This document shows, in pieces, positions 2,587 through 58,937 of a DNA stretch of 64,000 bases. Origin of the DNA: Escherichia phage nieznany; sequence record NC_052659.1. One strand, written 5' to 3'. Below the pieces are notes generated by a model, which did no database searches, was not told the origin of the DNA, and was given only the letters and a program-made list of their open reading frames with translations. Position 1 is the first letter of the stretch; each line of letters starts with the position of its first letter. The position numbers and the translations under genes were made by a program.

Positions 2587-2597
2587 GGAGAGAAAAC

Positions 2598-2813
2598 ATG
2601 AAAATCAAAGATCTGCCAGTAGGCACTAAGTACAAACTAGCTCAAGCCCCACGTATGGATACGACCAGTACGTTTATCGTCGTGGATATTAAGTACATGC
2701 AGGATACTTTCGGCATCCTTGAAGATGAAGTTGGTATGAGCTATTGTATTGACAAGAACGAAATCGTTCCGTGGCGAGGTCACGAACTTTGTGAATGCAT
2801 CATTGTAGAGTAA
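2598..2813 (+). CDS. hypothetical protein
   Basis: AGGAGAG RBS; 71 aa. Confidence 0.4.
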   Translation: MKIKDLPVGTKYKLAQAPRMDTTSTFIVVDIKYMQDTFGILEDEVGMSYCIDKNEIVPWRGHELCECIIVE

Positions 2814-2829
2814 AACAGAAGGGGGGGCT

Positions 2830-2961
2830 ATGTACGTTATCTGGGTAGATGAAGGTGATGGGTGGTATATCTATAAAGAAACAGGCCATTGGCCTGATGT
2901 GCAGAAAGCCCTTGACAGTTTCGATTATTGTTACTATGATTCACACTTTGAAGACGAATAG
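2830..2961 (+). CDS. small hypothetical protein (43 aa, below ORF-track cutoff)
   Basis: GGGGGG RBS then ATG 2830; in-frame to TAG 2959-2961. Confidence 0.3.
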   Translation: MYVIWVDEGDGWYIYKETGHWPDVQKALDSFDYCYYDSHFEDE

Positions 2962-2975
2962 ACAGGAGAAATAAC

Positions 2976-3143
2976 ATGTGGAATAAACCCGCACAAGGTC
3001 AACTTCCTTACCCACATCAGGTGGTGATTGCCATCACACCAGAAGGAAAAGAAGTAGAGATGTATCGTGTCGGTAATCTTTGGTTCCCTGCTGGGGACAG
3101 ATGTTATGTCTACTGGACACCTGAAATGTGGAGGGCTAAGTGA
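2976..3143 (+). CDS. small hypothetical protein (55 aa)
   Basis: AGGAGAAATAAC then ATG 2976; stop TGA 3141-3143. Confidence 0.3.
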   Translation: MWNKPAQGQLPYPHQVVIAITPEGKEVEMYRVGNLWFPAGDRCYVYWTPEMWRAK

Positions 3144-3490
3144 AGGATAATATTTGCTACCAACATCTCTATTGGATTCATGACGAAGAGACTTACGCTC
3201 AACGTGTTATCGTATGTGCGGCTAATAAATACATCCTGACAACTGGGGAAGAACTGGTCGTACCTTGTGTCAGACACGCAAATCCGGTATTATCCCAGCA
3301 GATAAAACTTCTAATGGACGCTGGTTTGTTGTCTAAGTCCTATTGTCATCCAGATGATCAAGGGTTTATTGACCAATATTATAATTGGTGGAATCGTGTA
3401 GATGCATTTATTATTGCAGATCATGCTAATCAAATTGATTATGACAGAAATGGTCATTATCGTGAGTTATTTAGTGAGGGGCTATATTAA
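3140..3490 (+). CDS. hypothetical protein
   Basis: 116 aa ORF, GTGA overlap with upstream. Confidence 0.4.
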   Translation: MKDNICYQHLYWIHDEETYAQRVIVCAANKYILTTGEELVVPCVRHANPVLSQQIKLLMDAGLLSKSYCHPDDQGFIDQYYNWWNRVDAFIIADHANQIDYDRNGHYRELFSEGLY

Positions 3491-3984
3491 TGAGAGATAT
3501 TCTTACAGAACTTGGAGTAAACCACTGTAGTCATAAGCTTGAAGATGACTGGTTAGATTTTTATGCTATTAATTACGCTCAAGCACGTAAGAGCTTTAGT
3601 GAAGCTTTATCTCATGTTCAAGAGTTATTTAATGTAAAAGAAGATAAGGTATTGGCTAAAACATACACAATCAGTTCTTATGATTACACTAACCCTGAGT
3701 TTATGTTAAAATTTTGGAGAGATGTTAATCAGTTCATTAAAGAAAATACATCAAAGGACTGGAGTTTTTCCTATATTACTATTGAAGATACTGAAAAATT
3801 CCTAGACCAATATGATGATTTTGGTGAAGATTGTAAAGAAATTAGCGTTTATGCTTATGTTAAAAGCTTTGACCAGTTTACATCACAAGAGCAAAAAGAT
3901 GCAATCAATACAATGAGGTATTATGAGATGAAGCTGAAAGAAGCAAAAGAAGATTTAGATCGCTATAAAAGGGTGGCATATTAA
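3490..3984 (+). CDS. hypothetical protein
   Basis: 164 aa ORF; TAATG overlap. Confidence 0.45.
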   Translation: MRDILTELGVNHCSHKLEDDWLDFYAINYAQARKSFSEALSHVQELFNVKEDKVLAKTYTISSYDYTNPEFMLKFWRDVNQFIKENTSKDWSFSYITIEDTEKFLDQYDDFGEDCKEISVYAYVKSFDQFTSQEQKDAINTMRYYEMKLKEAKEDLDRYKRVAY

Positions 3985-4538
3985 TGTTTGTGACGAGTGA
4001 CCGCCATTTCTGGCACGATAAAGTTCTTGATTTTCAGGCGCATACCCGCCCATTTTCTAGCTTGGAAGAAATGCACGAGGCGTATATTAAAGAGTGGAAC
4101 GCCTGTGCAACTAAACCTGGTGTTAAAATGTATCACTTGGGAGATTTCAGTTTTGGTCTTGAAGAACAGACAGAAGAGATCTGCAAGCGTTTGCAAGGTG
4201 ATATCACCTTCATCGTGGGGAACCATGACCGCAGCTATACCCGTTCCGTAATGGAGAAGTACGGGCGTGTTGTTTGGTACGACGAAGTGAAATACCAGAA
4301 ACATTTCTTTGTATTGAGTCATTATCCTATGCTTACTTGGAACAAATCTCATAAAGGAAGTATTATGCTTCATGGTCATGAACATGGGAATCTTGTTCAT
4401 TTAGAGCACGAACGTGGAAAAACTATGGATGTTGGTGTAGATGTTCATGGTCGTTTCTTACATTTTGATGAAATCATTGAAGTGATGAAAGACCGTCCTA
4501 TGCGTATGGATCATCGTAAATTTAGATCGGAGGAATAA
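3984..4538 (+). CDS. calcineurin-like metallophosphoesterase
   Basis: Motifs DRHFWHD, GNHD, GHEH typical of metallophosphatase fold. Confidence 0.6.
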   Translation: MFVTSDRHFWHDKVLDFQAHTRPFSSLEEMHEAYIKEWNACATKPGVKMYHLGDFSFGLEEQTEEICKRLQGDITFIVGNHDRSYTRSVMEKYGRVVWYDEVKYQKHFFVLSHYPMLTWNKSHKGSIMLHGHEHGNLVHLEHERGKTMDVGVDVHGRFLHFDEIIEVMKDRPMRMDHRKFRSEE

Positions 4539-4680
4539 TAATGGTAACAATGTATGTACTGTTTGCAATTTTTTATTCTGGTAATGGTAATTCAACTTAT
4601 CAGGCAGAGTTTAACTCGCAAGGGGCTTGCATTATGGCGTTAGAGGAAGGTAAGCGTGTGAAGATTTTTGACCGTGGCAT

Positions 4681-4944
4681 GTGTGTGCCGAAGGGGTGAA
4701 AATGAATATTCCAGATGATTTTTATACCCACGAGAACTCGTGGAGAAAGGCTCTTGAACGTCTTATCGAACTGGAGCCTGTAACTGGTGAACCTGACGAA
4801 GATAACCGTGGGTTTTGGGAACATGAATTACGTGCATTCAATCACGCTTATGAGCAACTTCATAAGGGTTGTCCCCATGATGGTGCTACCTACTATGATA
4901 TGAGTGGGCGTGAACGCTGTGGAATGTGTGGAGGTGATATTTGA
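4681..4944 (+). CDS. hypothetical protein (C-terminal CxxC)
   Basis: 87 aa ORF. Confidence 0.35.
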   Translation: MCAEGVKMNIPDDFYTHENSWRKALERLIELEPVTGEPDEDNRGFWEHELRAFNHAYEQLHKGCPHDGATYYDMSGRERCGMCGGDI

Positions 4945-5126
4945 GAAAACTTATTGTACCATGGCTCTATTGCCCTTGTGGGAGCAGTAAGATTGAAGTA
5001 GAGACTGAAAAAGGTGATGAGTTATACCTCTATTATGGCGACAAAGTGAAATGCCTTGTTTGCGGAAATGAAGGTGAAATCGAAACAGATGATTGCTGCG
5101 CGTATGCAGTGTGGGAGGATGAATGA
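4941..5126 (+). CDS. small zinc-ribbon-like protein
   Basis: CPCG...CLVCG cysteine pairs; 61 aa. Confidence 0.35.
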   Translation: MRKLIVPWLYCPCGSSKIEVETEKGDELYLYYGDKVKCLVCGNEGEIETDDCCAYAVWEDE

Positions 5127-5347
5127 GTACAGCTATTTATGTAAGAGGCGTGAGTGAACACGAGCAATGTCTTTTCTCTTTTGGGGAAGGTGTAGAGATT
5201 GAGGATATGTATCAAGAGATTTGCGAAGTCTTGGATAATGAAGGATTCACTATTGTAAACTCTTTTCTTGTTACATCATCTGAATATTTAGAGGTTGATT
5301 TAACACAGATGATGTTTAGTGTCCAAGAAACAGTTTTTGATTGGTAA
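5123..5347 (+). CDS. hypothetical protein
   Basis: 74 aa ORF with ATGA overlap. Confidence 0.35.
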   Translation: MSTAIYVRGVSEHEQCLFSFGEGVEIEDMYQEICEVLDNEGFTIVNSFLVTSSEYLEVDLTQMMFSVQETVFDW

Positions 5348-5356
5348 GGAGAAATA

Positions 5357-6472
5357 ATGCTGCAATTAAATCCTACATTGTATGGTAAAGACACCAAAGG
5401 TAATATTAAAGAATGGTCTGTCTATACGGATGGTGCAACTGTTACAGTTGGTCATGGTCGTCTTGGTGGGAAGATTACTACGAAATCCTATGAAGCTGAA
5501 GCAAAAAACATTGGTCGTTCCAATGAAACAACACCGGAAGAACAAGCTGAACTTGAAGCTTTTGCCAAATGGACAAAACAGTTAAAGAATGGCTATTATA
5601 AAACAAAAGAAGAAGCTGAAAACCATGTTCCTTCCACACCAATGAAATGCCAGGATTATAAAGATTATCCTGAAAGGGTTGTGTTCCCTGGTTATGCACA
5701 ATACAAACTGAACGGGTTACGTTCTATGATTAACATGAAAGGGGAGTGTTTATCAAAAGCTGGGGAAGTGTACAACCTGCCACCTCATTGGAAAGGTATT
5801 CCAAACTTTATTAGTGAAGTTGTTGGTCATCCTCTTGATGGTGAAGTGTTTGCTGGGTTAGGTGTCCTTAGTCTGCAACAAATTAACAGTGCTTGGAAGA
5901 AGCATAATGCAAATACACCTTTGCTGAATTATTACGTATACGATATTCCAGTTCCAGGTCTACCGTTTGAAAAACGTGTTGATGCTCTTGCTGCTCTTAA
6001 GGCAGTAGTTGAAGATTATGGTCTTGACGAGCTTATTTGTGTAGTTCATACAGAGTATATTGAAAACCAAGAACAGTTTGATGCTTTCTATGAAAAAGCT
6101 TTACTTGAGAAAGCTGAAGGTGTAGTATATCGTAATGCTCACGGAGTTTACGAATTTGATAAACGTTCTTATGACGTTATTAAACGTAAGCCTCGCCACA
6201 CCCTTGAAGTTAAAGTAATAAATTCAAAAAGTGATAAAAATGGTGATGGAGTGTTGACAGGTGAGATGGAAAATGGTAAAGTAGTCGAATTCTTAATGCG
6301 TAAAGATGCTCATGAGACTATCAATTATCGTAAAGCAGAGAATGCTTCTACCTTGATTAATCAGTTCGTTGAAATAGAGTATGAAGAATTTTCAGATGAA
6401 GGTATTCCAACAAAACCTGTTGGTGTTCGTATTCGAGAAATGATCCCAGGCACTTGGGAACCAGCAGAATAA
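5357..6472 (+). CDS. ATP-dependent DNA ligase-like nucleotidyltransferase
   Basis: Motif I variant KLNGLR (KxDGxR with D->N), motif III LDGEVF, motif V EGVVYR, KRK near motif VI; 371 aa like small phage ligases. Confidence 0.6.
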   Translation: MLQLNPTLYGKDTKGNIKEWSVYTDGATVTVGHGRLGGKITTKSYEAEAKNIGRSNETTPEEQAELEAFAKWTKQLKNGYYKTKEEAENHVPSTPMKCQDYKDYPERVVFPGYAQYKLNGLRSMINMKGECLSKAGEVYNLPPHWKGIPNFISEVVGHPLDGEVFAGLGVLSLQQINSAWKKHNANTPLLNYYVYDIPVPGLPFEKRVDALAALKAVVEDYGLDELICVVHTEYIENQEQFDAFYEKALLEKAEGVVYRNAHGVYEFDKRSYDVIKRKPRHTLEVKVINSKSDKNGDGVLTGEMENGKVVEFLMRKDAHETINYRKAENASTLINQFVEIEYEEFSDEGIPTKPVGVRIREMIPGTWEPAE

Positions 6473-6525
6473 GGAGGAAAAATGTTCTTAGCTTATCATT
6501 GTGCAAAATACCTGGAGGCATTTTT

Positions 6526-6708
6526 ATGATAATTTTAGCAACAATTATTATGATGTTGATAGCAATTGCTATTATAATTCTGGCATCTTTTCCGGCGGAT
6601 AAATGGTATTTCAATATTCCACGTATGCTTGTTTTCGGTTTCGCAGGGATTTACATGGGTGAGTCTGTAGTAAATATTAGCAACTTTCTAGAAAGCTATT
6701 TTAAATAA
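6526..6708 (+). CDS. small membrane protein
   Basis: GGAGG then ATG 6526; strongly hydrophobic MIILATIIMMLIAIAIIILA. Confidence 0.4.
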   Translation: MIILATIIMMLIAIAIIILASFPADKWYFNIPRMLVFGFAGIYMGESVVNISNFLESYFK

Positions 6709-6717
6709 GGAGTTATA

Positions 6718-7443
6718 ATGATCGAGAATTTTTTTAAAGATATTAAATTCGATACTGAATTTTTCAAAAATGCAGCAAAGCACGTAATTGATTGGAATGC
6801 CAAAGCACGAGGTGGTGAACAACCTGAATTCACTCAAGAGCTATTTATGTCCCAAATCGGGTTCGTTCGTGAAGAGCTTAAAGAGTATGAAACAGCCGCG
6901 AAAGTAAACGATCATGTAGAACTCTTGGATGCAGCAGCGGATATTTTTGTAGTATCCAGTTATCTTACTTACATGTTCTTTGGTGAAGAACATACGATGA
7001 ATTTCTTGGACTATGCTGTAGGCGATGTTTTTACTCCAACTGTGTATACTGATTTTGATGCTTTGGAACAAACATTTACAGAGCCAGTTCAAATGGCACT
7101 AATGGCTGCTGGTATTATGCGTATGTCTCGTGACACTCTAATCCGTTCAAAATATCCAGAAAAGAAAGTTATTAAAGAGGTATTGAAAAGTAATGATTCC
7201 AAGTATCCAACTAAACAACAGTTGCTGAAAACTTGGAAAACTTCGGATATCGATTCAGCCATTGCACAAGAATGCGCTGCAATTGAAGAACGAAATGCCA
7301 ATCGTCCAGAAGGGGCATACACTGGTGTTCATGCTGTTTATAATGAAAAACAGAAAGTGTATGTGTTCTTTGATGATAAAGGTAAGATCATGAAACCATC
7401 GACCTTTGTCAAACCTAATATTGCAGGTATTATTAATAAGTAA
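6718..7443 (+). CDS. MazG-like nucleoside triphosphate pyrophosphohydrolase
   Basis: EE-x-E...ELLDAAADIFVV helical motif typical of MazG/dUTPase-like all-alpha NTP-PPase. Confidence 0.5.
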   Translation: MIENFFKDIKFDTEFFKNAAKHVIDWNAKARGGEQPEFTQELFMSQIGFVREELKEYETAAKVNDHVELLDAAADIFVVSSYLTYMFFGEEHTMNFLDYAVGDVFTPTVYTDFDALEQTFTEPVQMALMAAGIMRMSRDTLIRSKYPEKKVIKEVLKSNDSKYPTKQQLLKTWKTSDIDSAIAQECAAIEERNANRPEGAYTGVHAVYNEKQKVYVFFDDKGKIMKPSTFVKPNIAGIINK

Positions 7444-7499
7444 TGTTGTAAGCCGCCCTTTATGGGCGGTAATGTGAGATGTATTAAATAGGAGGAAAC

Positions 7500-8378
7500 A
7501 TGTTTGTAAAATCTTTTAAATCCGCTCTGCCTATGGTTGTTGGTGACAATGCTTCTGTAGCATCCCTTAACAGCATTACAGATATTCCTCTGGAATTTGT
7601 AACAGCAGAAGGCTCCCAGTCACACACTATCGGTCTTGTTCGTTTCGAAGATGACTCTAAATTTGTAAAAGAGTTTTCAGATCTTGAACTGCTTAATGTA
7701 GGTCAATCTGTGAAGAAGGTAGATAAAAAGAAAGTTAAACGTATTCTGAATGAACGGCTAGAAGAAATGCGTCAGGACATGGAGAGCGAAGGTAAAGAGT
7801 TTTATGTCGATAAAGAAGTAGTCAAAGCAATGAAGGAAGATATTGAATTTGCACTATTGCCTGAAACAGAACCTGAAGATTTCTTTAACTATGTTGTCTT
7901 GGATAAAACTACGAATCTTCTTTATGTTCTTAATGGAAGTAAAAAGGTTGCAGAAGAGATTACTTCTTTCCTCCGTTCCGTTCTGGGGACTTTCCCTTCG
8001 GTAGGTTTTAGTGTGCATGAAGAAGCTATTGTAAAAGGTTTTGGTGAATTGCTGGAGAATCACGAAGCAGATCGTATTACTCTCGGAAATTATATCAAAA
8101 TGGAGGATAGCGAGGGCGTTGTTGTTTGGAGTAAAGAATCCCTATACGAGTCTAAAGCTGTCGAACTAAAAGAAGATGGTAAAGATGTTGTTGCAATCGG
8201 TCTTGAATATGACGGTGTTGTAGATTTCGTAGTGGATAAAGAGTTTAAACTTTCTAAACTACGTTTTCCGAAATATTTTGCAGACGAAGAAGGCAGTATT
8301 GAAGCTTCAGTCCTTCTGTGCTTCAATGAGATTCGAGGTCTGATGGAAGATTTAACCAAAGCAACAATCCTTAAATAA
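7500..8378 (+). CDS. hypothetical acidic protein
   Basis: 292 aa ORF, GGAGGA RBS. Confidence 0.5.
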   Translation: MFVKSFKSALPMVVGDNASVASLNSITDIPLEFVTAEGSQSHTIGLVRFEDDSKFVKEFSDLELLNVGQSVKKVDKKKVKRILNERLEEMRQDMESEGKEFYVDKEVVKAMKEDIEFALLPETEPEDFFNYVVLDKTTNLLYVLNGSKKVAEEITSFLRSVLGTFPSVGFSVHEEAIVKGFGELLENHEADRITLGNYIKMEDSEGVVVWSKESLYESKAVELKEDGKDVVAIGLEYDGVVDFVVDKEFKLSKLRFPKYFADEEGSIEASVLLCFNEIRGLMEDLTKATILK

Positions 8379-19185: not shown

Positions 19186-19501
19186 TATCGAATGGCGTAT
19201 GTTACAGGGTGCACCATATGATAAATGGAAAGAAATATTTGGAGACGACCCACAAGTTGAAGACCAGTTCGATGGGGACTTTAATTGGTTTCTCTGTGAA
19301 GGTTTGGGCTTGGAAAACATTTCCCCGTGGTACGATGCAGATCCTGAAGATTGTGTCTTCGGTGTCAAGCTGTGTAGCGGCTGTGGTGCTTGTGCCATAG
19401 ACCTCACAAGCTTAAATAAAAAAGCAAATGAGATCTATTTTGAACTACTTAATAAGTATAATATTGAAACTGAAACATTAGTGTCACAAAACGTCTGGTA
19501 A
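19175..19501 (+). CDS. hypothetical protein
   Basis: 108 aa ORF. Confidence 0.4.
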   Translation: MGIDIEWRMLQGAPYDKWKEIFGDDPQVEDQFDGDFNWFLCEGLGLENISPWYDADPEDCVFGVKLCSGCGACAIDLTSLNKKANEIYFELLNKYNIETETLVSQNVW

Positions 19502-19510
19502 GGAGAACTG

Positions 19511-20503
19511 ATGCGCTATCTGGTAACAGGTGGTCTTGGTTTTATTGGGAGCGCCGTGGTGCGCTCTCTTTGTCAAGATCCTAATAACGAAGTTTTTGTC
19601 GTTGATAAGATGGGCTATGCAGCAGATATTGAGAATGTAGGCGATATCACTCACGTTAAACTAAGCATGACAGATTTGGCAAACGAAACCCAGGTCAAAA
19701 GTTTAGTAGTAGAGTGCAATCCTGACTTCATCATTCACTTAGCGGCAGAAAGTCATGTGGATAATTCTATCAAGAATCCACGAGTTTTCATCGACTCCAA
19801 TATTATCGGTACATACAATTTATTGGAAGCTGCAAGGCTCCTCCCAAAAAATAAACTGAAGATGTTCGTACACGTCTCCACAGACGAAGTGTACGGCGAT
19901 ATGGCAGACTCTGGCGTTCCCTTTACCGAAGAGACAGCTTATGCCCCTTCAAGCCCGTACAGTGCGTCTAAGGCAGCATCTGACCATCTTGTGAAAGCTT
20001 GGCACCGCACCTACGATTTGCCTGTTGTGATAACCAACTGCTCCAATAACTTTGGGCCTTATCAACATCCAGAAAAGCTGATCCCAAAAATCATCACAAG
20101 TATCTTGACGAATAAAGAGATTCCGGTGTATGGTAAAGGCGACCAGGTGCGAGACTGGCTTTTTGTTGAGGATCATGCGCGAGCTATTCTTCAAGTGGCA
20201 ACAGGTGGAGAACCAGGTCAAACGTATAATGTTGGAACACGTAATCCCAAAACCAATATGGAGATCATCTATATGGTTTGTGACTATATGGATACTGTAC
20301 ATCCAGAAGCAGTAACCTACCCTTCTTCCAACTTGATAACTTTTGTTGAAGATCGTAAAGGACATGACTTGCGTTATGAAATCAATCCTTCTAAGATAGA
20401 GTCTGAACTGGGCTGGAGTGCAAACTCTACATTTGAACAAGATCTCTACTCAACGATTGAATGGTACTTAAACAACCCTCAATGGTGGAGTGAGAAAATT
20501 TAA
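19511..20503 (+). CDS. rmlB: dTDP-glucose 4,6-dehydratase (RmlB)
   Basis: N-terminal [11 protein letters not shown] Rossmann motif; SDR-type dehydratase; first gene of rml cluster. Confidence 0.85.
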
Positions 20504-20511
20504 GGAGGGTT

Positions 20512-21390
20512 ATGAAAGGTATTATTTTGGCGGGAGGAAGTGGAACCCGCCTTCATCCGGTAACACGCAGTGTGAGCAAGCAATTGCTCCCTGTGTATGA
20601 CAAACCCATGATCTACTACCCTTTATCGGTATTGATGTTGGCTGACATTAAGGATATTTTAATCATCACCACACCAGGTGATCAGGAAGACTTTGAGTAT
20701 CTTCTCGGAGATGGGTCTATGTTTGGGATAAAACTCACTTACGCAATCCAATCCGAGCCACGAGGTCTTGCGGAAGCTTTCATCATAGGTAAAGATTTTA
20801 TCGGAGAAGACTCTGTTGCTCTTATTTTAGGTGACAACCTATTCTTCGGACAAAGCTTTGGTAAACTACTGATTAACGCCAGTGAGATGGTAGATGTTTG
20901 GGGAGGAGCTTGTATTTTCGGGTATTTGGTGAAAGATCCTGAACGATTCGGTGTGGTTGAATTTGGGAGTAATCGTCAAGCTATTTCTATTGAAGAGAAA
21001 CCTGAAAATCCTAAATCAGATTATGCTGTCACAGGTTTGTATTTCTATGATAACTCTGTTATTCAACGTGCATTAGAAGTAACCCCTTCCGCGCGTGGAG
21101 AACTGGAGATCACTGATATCAATCGCAGCTACCTAGAAGACAGGAAGTTACAAGTGGAAGTTCTCGGACGAGGATTTACTTGGCTTGACACAGGAACACA
21201 CGCCAGTCTGATGGAAGCTGGTCAATTCGTGCAGACTATTGAGAACTGTCAAGGATTGAAGATTGCGTGCCTGGAAGAAATTGCTTTCAAAAAAGGGTGG
21301 ATTTCTTTAGAGACTTTGGTGTATCATGGAAACTCACTGAAGAAAACAGAGTACGGGCAATACCTACTCAAATTAGCGGAGAGAAAATGA
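20512..21390 (+). CDS. rmlA: glucose-1-phosphate thymidylyltransferase (RmlA)
   Basis: N-terminal [18 protein letters not shown], near-identical to the RmlA signature. Confidence 0.9.
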
Positions 21391-21953
21391 AAGTAGAAAA
21401 AACAAAAATTGAAGGTGCGGTAATTATCAAACCAGACGTTTATAAAGATGATCGTGGTTTCTTTCTAGAAACATATAATGAACAAAAATACGAAGATATT
21501 ATTGGTAGACAAACTTTCGTTCAAGATAACATGTCTAAATCAAACTTCGGTGTTTTGCGAGGAATGCACTTTCAAACAAATAACCCGCAAGGTAAGCTAG
21601 TTCGTTGTGTAAGTGGGGAAGTATTGGATTTCGCTGTAGATTTACGTAAAGATAGTCCAACTTACGGTGCTTGGGACGGTGTTGTTCTTCGTGCACGACA
21701 CCATACGCAGTTTTGGCTTCCGCCTGGTTTGGCTCATGGTTTTATAGTTTTGAGTATGGATGCTATCTTTGAATACAAATGCACAACTCCATACGACCCT
21801 TCTAGTGAACAAAGTTTACGTTGGGATGATCCTGATATAGGGATCGATTGGGGCTTCGATATGATTTTTGACGAAGGTTTTAAACCTATTCTATCAACAA
21901 AAGATGCAATGGCTAAATCTTTTCAACAGTTACGTAGCGAGGGTGTATGCTAA
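21387..21953 (+). CDS. rmlC: dTDP-4-dehydrorhamnose 3,5-epimerase (RmlC)
   Basis: ATGA overlap with rmlA; cupin-type epimerase motifs [14 protein letters not shown]. Confidence 0.8.
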
Positions 21954-22789
21954 CATATCTGGTATTGGGCGGTAATGGACAACTGGGACAAGCTTTACGT
22001 AAAGTGGCTCCTTCAAATGTATCTTTAATTTATCCTAAAGAACGTGTAGATATTACAAATTTTGAAGCTGTGCGAAACGCTATTATTGAAGATTATGTAG
22101 ATGGTGTTATTAATTGCGCCGCTTATACGGCTGTAGATAAAGCAGAACATGATTTTGCTACTGCTTTGGCTGTTAATGCGTATGGACCTGCAAATATTGC
22201 GGCAGTGTGCAGCAAACTTAAAATTGATTTTGTGCATATTTCTACAGACTATATTTTTAATTATTCTCATCCTATTTTTGAAGATACTACACCTAACCCA
22301 ATAAACAATTATGGGTATACGAAAGAACTTGGTGAAAAAATGGTGCGAGGAGTTAACCCAAATGCATATATTATTCGAACAGCCTCGGTATATAGCGAAT
22401 TTGGAAATAACTTTCTAAAAACCATGTTGTCTCGCTATAATGATGGACAACGTGATTTTATTATTGTTGCTGATCAGTTCTCTTGTCCAACATATGCTCC
22501 AGATTTAGCAGAAGCTATTTTTGAAGTATTAAAAACAGGTTGGTCAAGGTCTATTAAGACTTACCATTTTGCAGGAAGCCATCTTATTTCTTGGGCGGAG
22601 TTTGCGGAAAAGATCTTGACACAGATGCCAGAACCTGTTAAGATATCGGCGGTATCAGCTTCAACCTATAATGCTCCAGCAGCACGTCCGGTGAAGTCAC
22701 AACTAGTAACCAGTCACTATCTTACAAAATCAGATTTAAATAAAGGTATTGAACAGTCTTTAGCAGTATTACTTAATAAGGAGAGGTAA
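21947..22789 (+). CDS. rmlD: dTDP-4-dehydrorhamnose reductase (RmlD)
   Basis: N-terminal LVLGGNGQLG; completes the four-gene rml cluster. Confidence 0.8.
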   Translation: MLTYLVLGGNGQLGQALRKVAPSNVSLIYPKERVDITNFEAVRNAIIEDYVDGVINCAAYTAVDKAEHDFATALAVNAYGPANIAAVCSKLKIDFVHISTDYIFNYSHPIFEDTTPNPINNYGYTKELGEKMVRGVNPNAYIIRTASVYSEFGNNFLKTMLSRYNDGQRDFIIVADQFSCPTYAPDLAEAIFEVLKTGWSRSIKTYHFAGSHLISWAEFAEKILTQMPEPVKISAVSASTYNAPAARPVKSQLVTSHYLTKSDLNKGIEQSLAVLLNKER

Positions 22790-23049
22790 TGGAATTTGTA
22801 ATTTTTGGTAAACCTAACTGTCAATTTTGTGAAATGTCAAAACAACTATTAACCATGCGCAATAAACAGTTTGAATATTTAAGTCTTGATCAAGACTATG
22901 ATTTAGAATCAATGACTAAAACAGTTGTTGATCTTACCGGAGTTCCTCCACGCACATTTCCACAAATTCTGTCCGAAGTGAACGGGGAGGTAACATACGT
23001 AGGCGGTTTTACCGAACTGCGTGATCTCATGGCTCAAATTGCGGAGTAA
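22789..23049 (+). CDS. glutaredoxin/NrdH-like thioredoxin-fold protein
   Basis: GKPNCQFC active-site CxxC; 86 aa. Confidence 0.6.
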   Translation: MEFVIFGKPNCQFCEMSKQLLTMRNKQFEYLSLDQDYDLESMTKTVVDLTGVPPRTFPQILSEVNGEVTYVGGFTELRDLMAQIAE

Positions 23050-27207: not shown

Positions 27208-27402
27208 ATGCAGAGCGGAGAAGAACTTTTAGAGAAACAATTCTCAACGCGTCAACAAGCTTTAAGTTATATGGTTTTTCTAAGCAATCTTGATGTGAAT
27301 GAGATACTTTTACGGCGCGAAGGTAATTTCTGGAGCGTTAAATATCATGCAACAAGGTCTGTAATCTACCTGGAAGAGGCGGAATTCTCTTTGGTAGAAT
27401 GA
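27208..27402 (+). CDS. hypothetical protein
   Basis: 64 aa ORF. Confidence 0.35.
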   Translation: MQSGEELLEKQFSTRQQALSYMVFLSNLDVNEILLRREGNFWSVKYHATRSVIYLEEAEFSLVE

Positions 27403-27416
27403 TCCGAGGAGTAGTT

Positions 27417-27830
27417 ATGCGTTCAACTTTCACTGGCAAAATAAATGCTGGTTTGATTTTTACAGCAGTAAGCATTCTTAGCAAAAAGTTTAAAGTTGTT
27501 AACCTACCTGTGTGTGTCGATTTTGATCATGTTTTTGATCCTTCGAACCCCACTCGTTGCATAGTAAGGAGTAATGTTGAAAACCCAACAGAAAATCTTT
27601 TTTATGTAACAAAACCATCTCAAAGCATACTTAACCAGGTTGAGGCGAAATTGATACCTAACGGTAAATATTACTCCTTTTTACCTTGTAAGTCGGTTGA
27701 AGTAGAGAATAGCAGTACTTTCGCTAACAACTTGTCTGTATTCGTTTTCTTTGTTTCGCACGAAGATGAAACAGATGAAATGGTAGCAACAGTGAGATCA
27801 CTTTATGACTCTTTAGGGGGTTGTTTATAG
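27417..27830 (+). CDS. hypothetical protein
   Basis: GAGGAG then ATG 27417. Confidence 0.4.
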   Translation: MRSTFTGKINAGLIFTAVSILSKKFKVVNLPVCVDFDHVFDPSNPTRCIVRSNVENPTENLFYVTKPSQSILNQVEAKLIPNGKYYSFLPCKSVEVENSSTFANNLSVFVFFVSHEDETDEMVATVRSLYDSLGGCL

Positions 27831-28000: not shown

Positions 28001-28330
28001 ATGGAAATTACTACAGAACAAGCCCTTATCGACGAGGGTCGTAAAATCTTAGAAAAGCATTTAGGGGAGATTCATAAAACTCCTGGCTATTTGGGTTGGA
28101 GAATTGTTGAAGCTGTAGATTTCCTTCCTCGTAACAGTAAAAGCGTCGAAATGCGATCTCTTTTCTTATTAGTAAAGGTGGATGGGGATACACCTTTTAA
28201 AGATGCCGCAGAGCATATTGAAAAAGTTGAAGAGAAAGCTTATGCAGAATTTGCAGATCTTGTTTTAGAACAAGAGATTGAAGGAAAGGTAAATATTTTT
28301 ATTTTCTTAGATTTTGAGGAGGATAAGTGA
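28001..28330 (+). CDS. hypothetical protein
   Basis: GGAGGAAGGA then ATG. Confidence 0.45.
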   Translation: MEITTEQALIDEGRKILEKHLGEIHKTPGYLGWRIVEAVDFLPRNSKSVEMRSLFLLVKVDGDTPFKDAAEHIEKVEEKAYAEFADLVLEQEIEGKVNIFIFLDFEEDK

Positions 28331-29070
28331 TCATACATAGAGAAATTACTGTTAAAAGCGATCAAGATCTTTTTATAATTGGAGATCTACATGGTTGTTA
28401 TAATTTGTATGAAAAAGGAAAGGCAAAGTTAGGTATCCGAGATACAGATGTGGTTGTATCTTTAGGAGATCTTACTGACCGTGGAAAGCAAAACTTTCGT
28501 TGTGTTTTAGAATTTACTCGTAAACACAATCGCTACGCTATTCGTGGAAATCATGAAGACATGATGATTAAAGGTATGCTGGAAGGAGATCGTAGCTACT
28601 TCGAGTGTTGGTATCAAAATGGAGGATATACAGTCCTTGAAGAATGTGGTGAAGAAGGAGCTACAGCCTTAGCAATGATGACAGAAGATTTACCTGTTGT
28701 TCTCATTGTTAACTACAGAGGCATGAAACTTGCGTTTATTCATGGTGGGTATCCATCTTCTTTGGAATATCTCCCTATAACAGATATTCCAGAATACACT
28801 TTGAAGATGACAAAAACACAAGAAAACCGTTTTGCTGAAGCACTTATGTGGGACAGAGATATGGTGGACTGTGCTAAAGAGGGAATGAAACTTCCTGTTG
28901 TGATGGGTGTGGACTATGTGTTTCATGGACACTCTTATGTAAAAACACCTATTATCAATGCGAATCGTGTTTATATGGATACTGGATCTGTGTTCAATAA
29001 TAACTTAACATTTGCTTATTTCGATATGGACGGTGGTCTTCAATTTTATTCAACTCTTGAGGAGGATTAA
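28327..29070 (+). CDS. Ser/Thr protein phosphatase (PPP-family metallophosphatase, lambda-phosphatase-like)
   Basis: GDLHGC, GDLTDRG, RGNHED motifs. Confidence 0.7.
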   Translation: MIIHREITVKSDQDLFIIGDLHGCYNLYEKGKAKLGIRDTDVVVSLGDLTDRGKQNFRCVLEFTRKHNRYAIRGNHEDMMIKGMLEGDRSYFECWYQNGGYTVLEECGEEGATALAMMTEDLPVVLIVNYRGMKLAFIHGGYPSSLEYLPITDIPEYTLKMTKTQENRFAEALMWDRDMVDCAKEGMKLPVVMGVDYVFHGHSYVKTPIINANRVYMDTGSVFNNNLTFAYFDMDGGLQFYSTLEED

Positions 29071-29378
29071 TGTATAAGATTACAATTATTCAAAGTGTAG
29101 GTAATATCCGTAAAGAAGTTATCTTAGAAACAGAAGATGTTAATCTTGTTCGTGAGATTGTTTTTAAGGAAGATAACCTGCAAGCTGTAGAATCGGATGC
29201 ACCGAATCTTATGGTGGATCAAGAATATTCTGAACTTCGTCGTATTTTTGAAGAGATTCAGAAGAAAGAAACACAACCTACCATAAAACCTTTTGGTCCT
29301 TATGATCCGAGCAATCCTAGCAGTCCTTGGATCATGAGAAATACAGAACCATATACACCTTTTGAAATTACTTGCTGA
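29070..29378 (+). CDS. hypothetical protein
   Basis: 102 aa ORF. Confidence 0.4.
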   Translation: MYKITIIQSVGNIRKEVILETEDVNLVREIVFKEDNLQAVESDAPNLMVDQEYSELRRIFEEIQKKETQPTIKPFGPYDPSNPSSPWIMRNTEPYTPFEITC

Positions 29379-29385
29379 GGTGTTT

Positions 29386-29967
29386 ATGGCAGAATTGTTT
29401 TATACGGGAGTTGGAAGTAGAGACATCTCCGAAGAAGAGTGGGCTTTGATGGTAGGCATAGGGAAATGGCTTTCCAACCTTGGATTTAAATTAAGGTCTG
29501 GGAAGGCAGAGGGTAGTGATTCTGCTTTTGAAACAGGTGTCCAAGAGTCTGAAAATCCTACCAACAAGGAGATTTATGTACCTTGGGAAAATTTCAAAGG
29601 TAATCAGATTCCAGGTGATGTTATTGTTCTTGCAAAACCAGATACAATGAACTATGCTATCTCTGTGCAATGGATCAAAGATGTTCACCCAGCTTATGAA
29701 AAGCTTAAGCAGGGCGCTAGAAAATTGCACCAACGTAATGTGCATCAGGTGTTAGGTAAAGATTTGGAGAATCCTGCTCCATCATGTTTCTTGTTGGCTT
29801 GTGCCGATACTGATAAACACGGAGATGCAAAAGGCGGAACAGCTACGGCTTGGAAGATAGCTAAAGCAAATAATGTTCCTTGTTTAAACATTCGTGGGAA
29901 AACAAAACAAGAGATTTACGATTTTCTACGACCTTTGGTAATGAGGGCAATAACAAGTGATTCCTAA
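29386..29967 (+). CDS. DprA/SLOG-like Rossmann-fold protein (tentative)
   Basis: TGVGSRDIS and SGKAEGSDSAFETG resemble DprA GTR...SGxAxGID motif. Confidence 0.35.
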   Translation: MAELFYTGVGSRDISEEEWALMVGIGKWLSNLGFKLRSGKAEGSDSAFETGVQESENPTNKEIYVPWENFKGNQIPGDVIVLAKPDTMNYAISVQWIKDVHPAYEKLKQGARKLHQRNVHQVLGKDLENPAPSCFLLACADTDKHGDAKGGTATAWKIAKANNVPCLNIRGKTKQEIYDFLRPLVMRAITSDS

Positions 29968-31796: not shown

Positions 31797-32738
31797 ATGG
31801 TGTTAATTGGTAGCCGTGCATTACAAATTCATGCTATGGATATGGGAAAAGACTTGTATCGCCCTTGTGTAGATTTAGATTACCTCTGTACAGAACAAGA
31901 ATGGGAAGAATTATCAAAAATGTTCTCTCAAGATGAGTTTGTTGAACTTGTAGAGCGTAAAGGGAACAAGGGCCATGTCAAAATGATAGCTGGTGCACAT
32001 TTGGAATACGATATTGCTTCTCAAGGAGATAGCACAGAAGCTTTGATTAGTTATTGTGAAGACTCTGATGATATTCGTCGAACTTACGCTGGACACGTTG
32101 TTGCTCCTTTAGATGTGCTCTACCTTCTTAAAATGAGTCATCGTTTTAAAAAGGATAGTCCTCACTTCTTTAAAACTATGAAAGATATTCATTTCATGCG
32201 ATCACTAGGCGCAAAGATCCCAGAAAATCTTAAGAGTATTTATGAGTTGCGTGAGAAAGAAACATACACTTACTCTCATCCAAACTTAAACGTGAGAAGT
32301 AAAGACTTCTTTAAAGGTGATGAGGTTCCGTATGTTTATGATCATGACTCTATTCATGAAGCAATCGCAGTAATGGATGCTCCAGCATATAAATCTTATA
32401 TGAAAGATGGAAGTGAAGTTATGACCAGCAAAGAAAAGTTTTTTGCTCAACCAAAACATGTGCGCCTGTTAGGTGTTTATGAAGAAGCGTGTGTTTTGGC
32501 TTTGGAACGTTCACAAATTCCTTTCGGTGAAGAGATCGGAGGTCCAACCCCTAAGCAAAGTTTTATGATGGCTTTATCTAAAGTTTGCACATCTATCACT
32601 AGTGGTTGGTTTAGGGAATATGCTTGGGAGAACTTTTATATTGTTACTAAACTATATGAAAACATGGGTGAAAACGACTATGTTGAACGTTTTAAAGCTA
32701 ATCGACATGTAGTTAAGCCTTTTGAAGGAGGTTATTAA
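31797..32738 (+). CDS. hypothetical protein; possible nucleotidyltransferase-fold (GS...DxD) - weak
   Basis: N-terminal LIGSRALQ...CVDLDYL loosely resembles a minimal NTase motif; 313 aa. Confidence 0.4.
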   Translation: MVLIGSRALQIHAMDMGKDLYRPCVDLDYLCTEQEWEELSKMFSQDEFVELVERKGNKGHVKMIAGAHLEYDIASQGDSTEALISYCEDSDDIRRTYAGHVVAPLDVLYLLKMSHRFKKDSPHFFKTMKDIHFMRSLGAKIPENLKSIYELREKETYTYSHPNLNVRSKDFFKGDEVPYVYDHDSIHEAIAVMDAPAYKSYMKDGSEVMTSKEKFFAQPKHVRLLGVYEEACVLALERSQIPFGEEIGGPTPKQSFMMALSKVCTSITSGWFREYAWENFYIVTKLYENMGENDYVERFKANRHVVKPFEGGY

Positions 32739-33811: not shown

Positions 33812-34464
33812 TGTCAAATTCCAAACCAGTAGTTGCTTATCAAGTAGATCGTAATGATGGTGAAGGAAGTGTTGTTATTTTCAGTACACACGGTCTTGAG
33901 GCTCGTCGAAAAGGTGCGTATCGTTTAGAATGTGAGTTTGAAGACTGCACAAGCCACCGTGTCAAACAATTTGATCAATATGCAGATAAAGGTTTTGTCC
34001 CTATCAAAGCCTTGCTGGAAGATGGTTGGTGGGTATATTCCGCTTTTGACTACTCAAAGTTGGAGGAGTCAGCTTCGTGCGCATCCGAGATCGAATATGA
34101 TGATTACTATGACACTCTCTACCTTCCAGAATGGCTTGTCTTTTCCCCTGATGAGAGAAGCGTCTGGAAAACTTGGGAAGAAATGGAGAGACATGCATAT
34201 AGCATCAATGAAGCCTTAGATCGTAAAGCTTGGTTTATTGAGGCAGTAAAGGCGGCATACCCTCAATTTTCATTCTGTGATTTCACTGGTGGCCCAGGGT
34301 ACATTACACATACAGCCTCTTTTGAGTTCCCTGGTTCACGTTATAAAGGTAACGTTTATTGGGATTGGGATGAAAATAAACAACCTTCGGCTCAAGACTT
34401 CCGTTGCTATGTTTGCCAAGGTGATCAAGAAGCCCTTGACAAATACCTACAAAGTCTGGTATAG
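33811..34464 (+). CDS. hypothetical protein
   Basis: 217 aa ORF, TAATG overlap. Confidence 0.45.
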   Translation: MSNSKPVVAYQVDRNDGEGSVVIFSTHGLEARRKGAYRLECEFEDCTSHRVKQFDQYADKGFVPIKALLEDGWWVYSAFDYSKLEESASCASEIEYDDYYDTLYLPEWLVFSPDERSVWKTWEEMERHAYSINEALDRKAWFIEAVKAAYPQFSFCDFTGGPGYITHTASFEFPGSRYKGNVYWDWDENKQPSAQDFRCYVCQGDQEALDKYLQSLV

Positions 34465-34522
34465 TGCCAACATCTGAACAAAGCCTCCTGTTTCAGGGGG
34501 CTTTTCTTTTATAGGAGGGAAT

Positions 34523-34996
34523 ATGTTTCAAGTAAATGTCAATGTGCATAATAGTTACTCTGATTGTGAGACGTGTGGCTATAATTCATCTAATGTTGTT
34601 CGTATTAGTGGCGATTTAGGAGAAGCTTCTTTTGGAGAAGAAGCAAGTTGCTTTAGTGGTATGGATGCAGAATGGAACGATATTGCACATTGGTTGGTGA
34701 GCAAACTAAAAGAAAAAGAGAAACCATTTCCTACTCTGCTTGATCGTTCTCTTGTAGAAGATGCAGGTAAAGCATATGCAGACTATGCGTATGCAGACGG
34801 GAAATATTTGGAAGATGATAAGGCTAACCATTTGCTTTATGTTTACTATGAAGCTGAATCTGCCTACGATAATTATTATAGCATGTCTAACATCCTACGT
34901 CTGTTTGCAGAGTTTGATATTTATTTCGAAGTAGAATTTTCAGAAGATGATACTTACGAATATGATTCTTATGATCCATTTGAGGAGGACGAATAA
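34523..34996 (+). CDS. hypothetical highly acidic protein
   Basis: 157 aa ORF, D/E/Y-rich C-terminus. Confidence 0.45.
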   Translation: MFQVNVNVHNSYSDCETCGYNSSNVVRISGDLGEASFGEEASCFSGMDAEWNDIAHWLVSKLKEKEKPFPTLLDRSLVEDAGKAYADYAYADGKYLEDDKANHLLYVYYEAESAYDNYYSMSNILRLFAEFDIYFEVEFSEDDTYEYDSYDPFEEDE

Positions 34997-35796
34997 TGCC
35001 AAGACGTGTATATTTTATTAGTGGTGCGGGACTAAGTGCTGACAGCGGAATCCAAACATTTCGCACAGAAACAGATTCTGGAAAGGCATTATGGGATGAA
35101 TACGATTTAACAGAAGTCTGTGACATTTTCAACTTCCGTGACGGTTATCAGCAAGAACAGGGTATTCCTGATGCTATGGGTGGCTTAGATGTGGAAGGAT
35201 ATAACCTCTACCGTAAAACTCACGACTTCTACAATAAACGTCGCGTGGAATTAGAGAAAGTTGACCCGAATCCAGCACATCTTCAGATTGGAGAATGGTT
35301 CGAAAAATACGGTGCAGAAAGGATTATTAACATTACTACTAACGTTGACGATCTATTAGAACGCGCTGGAATCGATAGAGAAGAAATATTGCACGTTCAT
35401 GGTTTCTTGCCAGAAGTTGTTGTTGATAACAAAATTATCAAAGATGTGGGTTACGCAGCTATTGATGTAGACGATTACAAATATGTGAAGCCTAATGTGG
35501 TGTTTTTTGGTGAGAATGCACCACTCTACACAGACATGTATCACAAACTGGATCAACTAACATCACAAGATATGGTTATCGTTGTAGGCTGCTCTAACCA
35601 AGTAATCAACTTCAACTGGGAACTCTTCCCTGCCCTGAATATTGGGGTTAAGATGGTTGTAGTTAACCCAGGTTTGAATTTTGTAGAACAAACTCTCTAC
35701 GAAGAACGTGGAGTGCTTGTCTACCGAGAGAAAGCAGGAACAGTCTTCAGTGATGAAGGCTTTATCAAAATGGTTGAAGACCATTTAAACAAATAA
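34996..35796 (+). CDS. Sir2 (sirtuin)-family NAD-dependent protein, lacking the zinc-ribbon cysteines
   Basis: GAGLSADSGIQTFR (GAGIS..GIPxFR), TTNVDDLLERAG (TQNID), catalytic HVHG, VVFFGE, VVGCS. Confidence 0.7.
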   Translation: MPRRVYFISGAGLSADSGIQTFRTETDSGKALWDEYDLTEVCDIFNFRDGYQQEQGIPDAMGGLDVEGYNLYRKTHDFYNKRRVELEKVDPNPAHLQIGEWFEKYGAERIINITTNVDDLLERAGIDREEILHVHGFLPEVVVDNKIIKDVGYAAIDVDDYKYVKPNVVFFGENAPLYTDMYHKLDQLTSQDMVIVVGCSNQVINFNWELFPALNIGVKMVVVNPGLNFVEQTLYEERGVLVYREKAGTVFSDEGFIKMVEDHLNK

Positions 35797-35804
35797 ACCA
35801 CTCA

Positions 35805-35822
35805 AGGGGCTTCGGCCCCTTT
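35805..35822 (+). terminator. UUCG-tetraloop hairpin AAGGGGCTTCGGCCCCTT
   Basis: Seen in sequence. Confidence 0.45.
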
Positions 35823-36115: not shown

Positions 36116-36140
36116 AAAGGCACCCAAGTGGGTGCCTTTT
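36116..36140. terminator. bidirectional terminator hairpin AAAGGCACCCAAGTGGGTGCCTTTT at the convergence of plus and minus blocks
   Basis: Seen in sequence; flanked by A/T tracts on both sides. Confidence 0.6.
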
Positions 36141-58394: not shown

Positions 58395-58937
58395 TCACAA
58401 ATATCGTCTTTGCGGTATTTTGTCTGGGAAAAGTATTTCGATCAGTTTATTATGATATTTGCCTAAAAGATTCTGCCCTTTCCAGGTAGCAGGGTTTAGC
58501 ACCCCTGGTTCATACATTCCCATTCCAATACCGTAAACCTTATCGTAAGGACTTGCTTCAACAAACGTTTTGTATTGGTAAAGGTGTAAGTCTGCATACA
58601 AATCTGGATTCTGTACATATTTCAAGCATAAGCCTCGCATAACAATACGCTCACGGTTCTCTTCCCACATATCATTATTAAAACCAGATACCGCTCGACC
58701 CATACGTTTGTAGTATGCTTGTTTCCTCTCGTTGTCACGTATAGTTGAGTGATCAAGGATAGCTGCTGCAATCGCATGATCCTTGAACAGCAAAGCCTTA
58801 CGCCACATCATATATTGCTCAACACAACAGAAAGTCTCATTGTAACCTGGTTCAGTTTCTGTAAAGGGTGCAATATACCAATTACTAAACACATCTTTAT
58901 GTGAAAAGAAGAATACATATTCATCAGTTATTCTCAT
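58395..58937 (-). CDS. NADAR / YbiA-like (DUF1768) domain protein
   Basis: N-terminal YVFFFSHKDVFSNWYIAPF and EQYMMWRKALLFKD resemble the NADAR family signature. Confidence 0.5.
   Translation of the reverse strand: MRITDEYVFFFSHKDVFSNWYIAPFTETEPGYNETFCCVEQYMMWRKALLFKDHAIAAAILDHSTIRDNERKQAYYKRMGRAVSGFNNDMWEENRERIVMRGLCLKYVQNPDLYADLHLYQYKTFVEASPYDKVYGIGMGMYEPGVLNPATWKGQNLLGKYHNKLIEILFPDKIPQRRYL

Follow-up and report, generated by a model that had tools for sequence, protein, structure and literature searches.

The sirtuin gene and its product

The window analyzed here is a stretch of 64,000 nucleotides (nt) from Escherichia phage nieznany (NC_052659.1), and it contains a gene whose product, judged by its sequence, is a real sirtuin-type enzyme that uses nicotinamide adenine dinucleotide (NAD+) and has lost its zinc-binding cysteines. 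The stretch comes from a Phapecoctavirus, a phAPEC8-like Escherichia coli myovirus of ~150 kb; over 3 kb around the sirtuin gene, nucleotide identity is 98.8% with phage KKP 3954 and 88.7% with phAPEC8, and placement of the gene in an early region is plausible. The gene and the parts of it on which the argument rests are listed below (aa, amino acids; pI, isoelectric point).

34996..35796 (+): gene of the phage sirtuin (266 aa, pI 4.65), whose one SIR2 domain is of the class III (CobB/SIRT5-like) type
35023..35064 (+): NAD-binding motif and cofactor-binding loop, residues 10-23 (GAGLSADSGIQTFR)
35119..35121 (+): codon of the invariant Cys42, aligned with CobB Ala76
35230..35241 (+): Y79-N-K-R82, the class III Y-x-x-R signature, with Y79 and R82 invariant in the clade
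35335..35349 (+): TTNVD nicotinamide-pocket motif, residues 114-118, with Thr115 in place of the Gln of TQNxD
35398..35400 (+): codon of the catalytic general base His135 (HVHG), invariant and aligned with CobB His147
35404..35496 (+): degenerate zinc ribbon, residues 137-167, a beta module of three strands with no Cys and with the DVGY motif kept
35497..35514 (+): VVFFGE, putative acyl-lysine substrate loop, residues 168-173, with V168, F170, F171 and E173 invariant

The protein is strongly acidic, with 45 Asp and Glu residues against 26 Lys and Arg, and carries the sirtuin motifs GAGLS, GIQTFR, TTNVDDL, HVHG, VVFFGE and VVGCS at residues 10, 18, 114, 133, 168 and 196, respectively. It matches the Pfam SIR2 family (PF02146) with 74.5 bits (E 1.4e-20, cut-off 24) over profile positions 1-178 of 180, and PHROG 2162, "Sir2 (NAD-dependent deacetylase)," over its full length (E 1e-96); both scores are far beyond chance. 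The AlphaFold model, with a predicted local distance difference test (pLDDT) score of 89.4 and a predicted template modeling (TM) score of 0.87, consists of a Rossmann domain and a small domain and can be superimposed on solved sirtuins. The solved relatives nearest by sequence are Sir2Af2, E. coli CobB and SIRT5, and the best Foldseek match is CobB (E 1e-15, TM 0.83-0.86, 26% identity), below which rank Sir2Af1/2, SIRT5, Sir2Tm, Hst2 and SIRT2. A conserved 73-aa antisense open reading frame (ORF) within the gene was taken as a frame artefact of the conserved coding region.

Substrate pocket and zinc ribbon

The residues expected of an NAD+-dependent sirtuin were followed through an alignment of 36 clade members that are 51-95% identical to the query. 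Within the cofactor-binding segment G10, A11, G12, S14, S17, F22 and R23 are invariant, and so are N116, D118, H135, G198, S200 and N224 farther along the chain, which leaves the NAD+-binding and catalytic residues in place. The cofactor-binding loop itself has low pLDDT, in line with a flexible loop in the apo form.

Positions of the substrate pocket were mapped by HMMER alignment to the CobB structure 6rxj, the numbering being confirmed by the mutant names A76G, Y92A, I131L and V187Y in the PDB. The CobB counterpart of the invariant Cys42, Ala76, is the position mutated in the engineered acyl-selectivity variants Ac2 and Ac3, and we take it to be equivalent to SIRT5 Ala86. V168 aligns with CobB V187 and F171 with CobB F190, while Y79 and R82 align with CobB Y92 and R95, so that the class III Y-x-x-R signature is present. 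Y92 and R95 are determinants of acidic-acyl recognition in CobB (PMC6636992), and the corresponding pair in SIRT5, Y102 and R105, has the same role (PMC9499238). The predicted substrate tunnel of the phage sirtuin, made up of C42, Y79, R82, V168 and F171, is intact. Positions 49-71 are occupied by a variable 23-residue insert.

Only two cysteines, C42 and C199, occur in the whole protein, none of them between His135 and the FGE motif, and the Cys4 zinc site is likewise missing in 36 of 36 aligned clade members. On its cysteine content, the protein would lack the structural zinc that two CxxC pairs bind in sirtuins. The fold of the ribbon nevertheless persists in the AlphaFold model as a module of 33 aa (residues ~136-168, pLDDT ~94), with strands predicted at residues 136-143, 147-150 and 164-168, and its D[IV]GY motif also occurs inside the zinc ribbons of the closest Cys4-bearing relatives.

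The original prediction, made from the letters of the window alone, had described this ORF as a Sir2-like enzyme without the zinc ribbon in a lytic phage. Its reading frame and every core motif that it quoted were found in the translation, the clear PF02146 match places the protein in the SIR2 family, and the lytic phage context is that of a Phapecoctavirus. Its statement that the CxxC pairs are absent is borne out by zero cysteines in the ribbon segment; the wording "without the zinc ribbon" holds for the Cys ligands only, as the ribbon itself is kept as a degenerate, Cys-free beta module.

Distribution and previous reports

Homologs of the sirtuin were found by tblastn in 979 phage records, most often from phages of Escherichia (374), Salmonella (289), Klebsiella (131) and Vibrio (50). 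Identity is ~53% to the T5-like proteins, 47-55% to the rV5- and Mydo-like ones and 35-37% to those of Vibrio jumbo phages, and representatives of the rV5-like, Mydo-like, T5-like and Justusliebigvirus groups taken together span 47-68%. In DT57C (NC_027356.1), a T5-like phage, the region annotated as sir2 matches just 14% of the query (residues 189-224), which suggests that the gene may have been truncated or replaced there and hence be dispensable in some T5-like phages.

The zinc-less clade appears, from these comparisons, to be phage-restricted. Clade-specific peptide patterns found no relative among 185,579 prokaryotic species, scanned at one genome per species, and a DNA pattern for N-x-TTNVDDL-x-ER matched 596 Gb of prokaryotic genomes once, in the 43-kb contig JBOFGC010000083 of a metagenome-assembled genome of Bacilli. 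That contig is phage-like by its ORF translations, which were read by eye, and positions 1383..7851 encode, one after another, NADAR-like, NAMPT-like, zinc-less sirtuin, endonuclease VII-like and NrdD-like proteins. The sirtuin on it adjoins NAMPT, and its lineage is remote from that of the enterobacterial phages. One of the nearest Cys4 relatives lies in an apparently cellular context, beside an ankyrin-repeat protein and a diacylglycerol kinase (short contigs).

The family has been described before. For the Sir2/CobB proteins of three Vibrio phages (phiSt2, phiGrn1 and KVP40), Skliros et al. (2016) reported that the zinc ligand is missing; they suggested that host enzymes, Acs for instance, are deacetylated, and named homologs from T5 and other phages (PMC5107563). 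Iyer, Burroughs, Anantharaman and Aravind (2022) placed most viral sirtuins in a distinct clade from proteobacterial phages, with prototypes in Serratia BF, Escherichia V5, Proteus Mydo and Escherichia SP15, and predicted from gene neighborhoods a KptA/Tpt1-like removal of RNA 2'-phosphates (PMC9503650). Proteins 100% identical to the present one have been deposited in GenBank as "NAD-dependent protein deacylase" or "deacetylase of SIR2 family." Since the family, its loss of zinc and its separate standing are all in print and this very protein carries an annotation, the prediction correctly re-discovered a known gene family and no new element. What the present comparison adds is the class III pocket, conserved together with an invariant Cys42, and, as set out below, the co-variation of a Gln-to-Thr change with zinc loss, the two-gene cassette that joins the sirtuin to an acidic CxxC...C protein, and the finding that in this lineage the gene is not linked to a Mydo-type RNA ligase.

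The two-gene cassette

The sirtuin gene is the penultimate gene of a plus-strand unit that converges on a long run of small minus-strand ORFs. Its immediate surroundings hold the following features.

34436..34465 (+): sigma-70-like promoter match, TTGACA, 18-nt spacing and an extended -10 (TGgTATAGT), 11 of 12 positions, the best in the region
34480..34504 (+): terminator-like hairpin that precedes the cassette, an 11-bp stem followed by a T tract, -16.4 kcal/mol, z -3.2
34523..34996 (+): upstream partner ORF, 157 aa, pI 4.05, PHROG 9509
35804..35821 (+): weak terminator-like hairpin with a UUCG loop, 8 nt past the sirtuin stop codon, -12.7 kcal/mol, z -1.85
36116..36139 (both strands): bidirectional terminator between the converging plus and minus units, detected on both strands, -17.5 kcal/mol, z -4.9

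The ATG of the sirtuin gene overlaps the stop codon of the partner ORF (TAATG) and lies behind a GAGGAGG Shine-Dalgarno sequence. The terminator at 36116..36139 is annotated as such in phAPEC8, and the GC skew changes sign there; terminator-like hairpins are enriched in the region as a whole (10 against 4.2 ± 2.0 expected). The promoter call is weak, since the regional promoter count matches the shuffle expectation. The promoter match ends 15 nt before the upstream hairpin, and a transcript started there would reach the hairpin within its first ~35 nt, an arrangement (34436..34504) that could represent attenuation, a 5' stabilizing stem or a spurious promoter match.

The partner protein contains an invariant C15-x-x-C18 and C43. 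It is 38% identical to the product of the gene immediately upstream of the sirtuin in Justusliebigvirus JohannJBalmer, is restricted to Stephanstirmvirinae-type lineages (unrelated ORFs stand upstream of the sirtuin elsewhere) and falls into just 9 clusters in a database of 5.8 billion proteins. Sequence searches of Pfam and the PDB gave no match, and a Foldseek search with its model (pLDDT 79) gave none either, the best E being 0.11. The label "aminoacyl-tRNA synthetase" that it bears in BASEL records finds no support in the Pfam, PDB or Foldseek searches.

Several other genes of the window may be recorded here. A 313-aa protein with DUF7277 and DUF7275 (E 6e-76) at 31797..32738 (+) is kept upstream of the sirtuin unit in related phages. 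The plus-strand unit of the sirtuin also includes a calcineurin-like phosphoesterase (28327..29070 (+), PF00149) and a "DprA-like" ORF (29386..29967 (+), PHROG 768); this pair, spanning 28327..29967, lies 5-6 kb upstream of the sirtuin in an arrangement kept in the related lineages 2, 6 and 8. Assignment of the DprA-like ORF to the SLOG domain was not confirmed, Pfam and PDB sequence searches giving no match. At 27399..27830 (+) an ORF of PHROG 4806 ("histidyl tRNA synthetase"-like) has 143 aa against ~190 aa in AV126 and phAPEC8 and may reflect a frameshift or truncation in this genome; phAPEC8 has a second ORF, gp042, with a product name of the PHROG 4806 style. A complete dTDP-rhamnose biosynthesis set of four genes (RmlA-D-like, 19500..22800 (+)) lies beside ribonucleotide reductase genes, by homology to the annotation of the near-identical phages AV126 and phAPEC8.

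Neighborhoods of related sirtuin genes

Neighbors within 7 kb were compared at 63 sirtuin loci from 18 lineages. A universal functional partner was sought and rejected, as the neighbors track phage taxonomy. The commonest, counted in lineages of the 18, are NrdD (7), a 190-aa phosphoesterase (7) and an ATP-dependent DNA ligase (6), followed by MazG (5), NAMPT (5), RNA ligase (4) and a P-loop ATPase (4). Mydo has its genes for phosphoesterase, RNA ligase, cREC, ATPase, sirtuin and DNA ligase in this sequence, with MazG a few genes further downstream, and such a gene order looks like a tRNA repair set of the yeast type.

A homologous block is present in the window, at a distance from the sirtuin.

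2245..2583 (+): cREC, PF20274 ("cyclic-phosphate processing receiver"), E 1.4e-14
3990..4502 (+): phosphoesterase of the cREC-MazG block
5357..6466 (+): ATP-dependent DNA ligase of the same block
6775..7422 (+): MazG-like pyrophosphohydrolase of the same block

This block (2245..7422) corresponds to the surroundings of the Mydo sirtuin and RNA ligase, yet it carries neither gene and lies 28-32 kb from the sirtuin. Within 7 kb on either side of the sirtuin here there is no RNA-end repair gene (RNA ligase, cREC, kinase, MazG, HAD or 2H), and the Mydo RNA ligase and P-loop kinase/ATPase, as well as NAMPT and phosphoribosyl pyrophosphate (PRPP) synthetase, gave no tblastn match at E <1e-3 in the whole phAPEC8 genome and the window. 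Rnl1-type ligases occur in 718 phage records (Pseudomonas 175, Streptomyces 101, Salmonella only 15), and set against the 979 sirtuin records, 289 of them from Salmonella, the overlap of the two is partial.

A distant zinc-less sirtuin was also seen on a 279-kb IMG/VR contig of a jumbo phage, where the locus (6721..8198) is flanked by a small Cys-rich ORF and by a second ORF, whose translation looks to the eye like that of a nucleoside 2-deoxyribosyltransferase-like protein; the contig would thus offer a further neighborhood related to NAD and nucleosides.

NAD metabolism and defense

The window contains a second gene that can be related to NAD+ and ADP-ribose.

58395..58937 (-): NADAR-domain protein, 180 aa, PF08719, E 3.4e-35, 122 bits against a cut-off of 35.1

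It lies 23 kb from the sirtuin gene, on the opposite strand and among small ORFs of early type. NADAR has been reported in 27% of myoviruses and in >48% of medium and large phages, and as it is both common in such phages and distant from the sirtuin, its presence counts only weakly toward a functional link. In other phages, genes for NAMPT and PRPP synthetase are found close to relatives of the sirtuin, and an NAD-dependent DNA ligase is encoded by a T5-like phage that has a sirtuin of the PHROG 2162 type; these associations argue that such phages protect or recycle NAD+ and do not destroy it.

A likeness to the SIR2 domains of bacterial defense systems was also examined. The SIR2_2 profile PF13289 matches the sirtuin with 14.5 bits, below its threshold of 24.5; a V117Y variant adds 5.7 bits, in keeping with the SIR2_2 consensus TTNYD, and Thr115 itself is worth only 0.4 bits. 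No PADLOC family matches the sirtuin, and its Foldseek top 50 include no defense protein. The sirtuin is a single-domain protein, and no defense partner (HerA, ThsB/SLOG, pAgo-APAZ, DSR C-terminal domain or STAND) was found among the neighbors scanned with Pfam and PHROGs.

With these results the likeness to defense-type SIR2 domains, which the original prediction had drawn from the missing CxxC pairs, falls away. The NADAR-like protein that it named is confirmed by PF08719, whereas the NAD/ADP-ribose theme that it built on that protein does not rise above background, given how frequent NADAR is in myoviruses. Overall, its reading of a Sir2 enzyme without a zinc site stands; the defense-like character and the theme do not.

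Proposed function

Substrate-dependent consumption of NAD+, probably in lysine deacylation, is the most likely function suggested by the conserved residues, and we infer that NAD+ is consumed only together with a co-substrate, with release of nicotinamide. The more specific proposal, that the enzyme deacylates lysines on host or phage proteins and favors acidic acyl groups, is put forward tentatively, as plausible rather than probable. NAD+ would be bound canonically and the substrate side chain would enter the tunnel, where the substrate oxygen beside the anionic group held by Y79 and R82 would attack C1' of the nicotinamide ribose and release nicotinamide; His135 would then activate a ribose hydroxyl, and the adduct would be resolved. 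The likeliest substrate would be an acylated lysine of host or phage proteins, with succinyl and malonyl groups favored and acetyl groups possibly accepted too, and the phage sirtuin would act as a CobB-like deacylase that resets the acylation of host machinery in infection. The acidic, Cys-containing 157-aa partner from the compact two-gene cassette may be a regulator, an adaptor or a substrate.

A number of observations weigh against deacylation. No biochemical or genetic work on any clade member was found in the literature. The substrate strand (residues 201-210) is poorly confident in the model, and a phosphate could be bound at the Y-x-x-R anion site just as well. The CobB-type models of NCBIfam score best yet stay under their cut-offs (NF001753, 94.5 against 243; NF040867, 79.7 against 320), and as these scores fall so far short, the protein is CobB-like and no CobB equivalog. 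In Vequintavirinae the sirtuin sits among genes for RNA ligase, cREC, P-loop kinase and phosphoesterase, a neighborhood that fits the published RNA-repair prediction (PMC9503650). The remaining points concern the nicotinamide pocket. The Gln of TQNxD (SIRT5 Q140) has been called universally conserved and NAD-binding (PMC9499238), whereas Thr stands in its place throughout the zinc-less clade, and the PF02146 score of a T115Q variant of the phage protein is higher by 4.7 bits. In a set of 126 representative relatives whose motif is recognizable, Thr was found with zero or one Cys in 30 and with at least three in 8, and Gln with zero or one Cys in 11 and with at least three in 73. Thr thus co-varies with Cys loss (odds ratio 24.9, Fisher p 1.9e-12, by a statistic that ignores phylogeny), and intermediate forms exist. 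A Gln-to-Thr change that co-varies with zinc loss suggests altered chemistry, and together with the sub-threshold CobB scores these two changes caution against reading the protein as simply a second CobB.

It is unlikely, if far from negligible, that the zinc-less, Gln-to-Thr lineage has ceased to be a deacylase and that NAD+ is attacked by a different anionic nucleophile at the Y-x-x-R site, with the cassette forming a two-protein unit in Stephanstirmvirinae. Candidate nucleophiles would be an RNA 2'-phosphate, which would make the enzyme a sirtuin-fold analog of Tpt1, or a small molecule or protein group that bears a phospho or carboxylate moiety, and the co-translated acidic CxxC...C protein would direct or gate the sirtuin in Stephanstirmvirinae. 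If this were true, the protein would be the first viral sirtuin to act on a substrate other than acyl-lysine.

The published form of such a change, a KptA/Tpt1-like RNA 2'-phosphotransferase (Iyer et al., 2022), we regard as unlikely for this phage. In that route the oxygen of an RNA 2'-phosphate attacks C1' of NAD+ and the ribose 2''-OH then attacks the phosphorus, giving 2'-OH RNA and ADP-ribose 1''-2'' cyclic phosphate and so completing the repair of tRNAs cut by anticodon nucleases of the host. The two steps would run parallel to sirtuin chemistry, the Y79/R82 anion site could hold the phosphate, and the Gln-to-Thr change and zinc loss hint at a new function. The clade prediction names rV5, Mydo and SP15 as prototypes (PMC9503650), and the present sirtuin is 47-55% identical to rV5-like, Mydo-like and T5-like representatives. 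The Mydo gene order, running from the phosphoesterase through RNA ligase, cREC and P-loop ATPase to the sirtuin, an RNA ligase neighbor in 4 of 18 lineages, a cREC gene directly upstream in lineage 15 and the 11 tRNA genes of phAPEC8 all speak for it. Set against this, homologs of the Mydo RNA ligase and P-loop kinase were undetected here (the Mydo type being the one RNA ligase family searched for), Rnl1-type ligase and sirtuin records overlap only in part, and the block of cREC, phosphoesterase, DNA ligase and MazG stands without a sirtuin, so that the Mydo linkage may be synteny and not function. The sirtuin is strongly acidic (pI 4.65), and in an alignment read by eye the only conserved basic residues to stand out were R3/R4 at the N terminus, R23 of the cofactor loop, the class III pair R82/R83 and K165. 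E. coli, moreover, already has KptA. RNA repair is possible for Vequintavirinae, to which the present window adds no support.

Transfer of ADP-ribose to a macromolecule is distinctly unlikely. The sirtuin would here be a counterpart of T4 Alt/ModA/ModB, or of SirTM with GcvH-L, and modify a host or phage protein, maybe the 157-aa partner, or another nucleophile. His135 is invariant, however, whereas SirTMs have no catalytic His; no macrodomain was found among 10 scanned neighbors, whereas SirTMs are macrodomain-linked; the partner ORF is limited to Stephanstirmvirinae-type lineages; and a conserved acidic-acyl pocket would be unneeded for transfer to a bare side chain. A free NADase, or an anti-defense manipulator of NAD+ and ADP-ribose that shuts down host metabolism or interferes with NAD-derived immune signals, was the leading idea of the original prediction and is highly improbable, for although the zinc module is lost, TTNxD shifts toward the SIR2_2 consensus TTNYD, a weak sub-threshold SIR2_2 match exists and NADAR and cREC genes lie in the window, such an enzyme would have no need of the conserved substrate tunnel (C42, Y79, R82). 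The remaining weight falls to other possibilities or to a function not yet imagined.

Which of these activities applies matters beyond a single phage. Sirtuin genes of the PHROG 2162 type occur in ~1000 sequenced phages, including the classic model T5 (T5.102), and the carriers include groups of therapeutic candidates such as the rV5-like, phAPEC8-like, Klebsiella and Salmonella phages. Deacylase activity, which we tentatively prefer, would mean that phages actively remodel the acylome of their host, whereas action on RNA 2'-phosphates or ADP-ribosylation of targets would extend sirtuin chemistry.

Comparison with known systems

The similarity to KptA/Tpt1 is one of function only, an NAD+-dependent attack on C1' followed by attack of the ribose 2''-OH (PMC9503650); the fold, of the ADP-ribosyltransferase (ART) superfamily, is unrelated, and no sequence or structural similarity to the sirtuin was seen. 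In SirTMs the catalytic His is missing, and a macrodomain and a lipoyl-carrier protein accompany the enzyme, whereas the present sirtuin has the invariant His135 and no macrodomain nearby, and so departs from the SirTM type. With the SIR2 NADases of defense systems (ThsA, DSR1/2, SIR2-HerA, SIR2-APAZ, KomC and Avs5) it shares the Rossmann core, the absence of the zinc ribbon and T-T-N-x-D.

The sirtuins of the "schizoT4-like" Vibrio phages KVP40, phiSt2 and phiGrn1 are likewise without zinc ligands. At ~35-37% identity their lineage is a distant one, and the jumbo T4-like phages that encode them have genes for NAMPT and NMNAT as well. The proposal of Skliros et al. was based on homology modeling and transcript profiling only (PMC5107563). 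E. coli CobB and SIRT5 have in common with the present protein the NAD+ motifs, the catalytic His, the FGE loop and Y-x-x-R. Compared with CobB, the protein is acidic, has no zinc cysteines, has Thr for Gln, carries the insert at 49-71 and has a Cys at the Ala76 position.

Of the neighborhood described for the clade of Iyer et al., no RNA ligase, cREC, kinase or HAD gene is adjacent to the sirtuin in this Phapecoctavirus, and a two-gene cassette with a lineage-specific acidic, Cys-containing ORF stands instead. The protein itself belongs with PHROG 2162, T5.102 and that clade, with which it shares the single-domain architecture, the absence of Cys4, the TTNVD motif and the restriction to phages.

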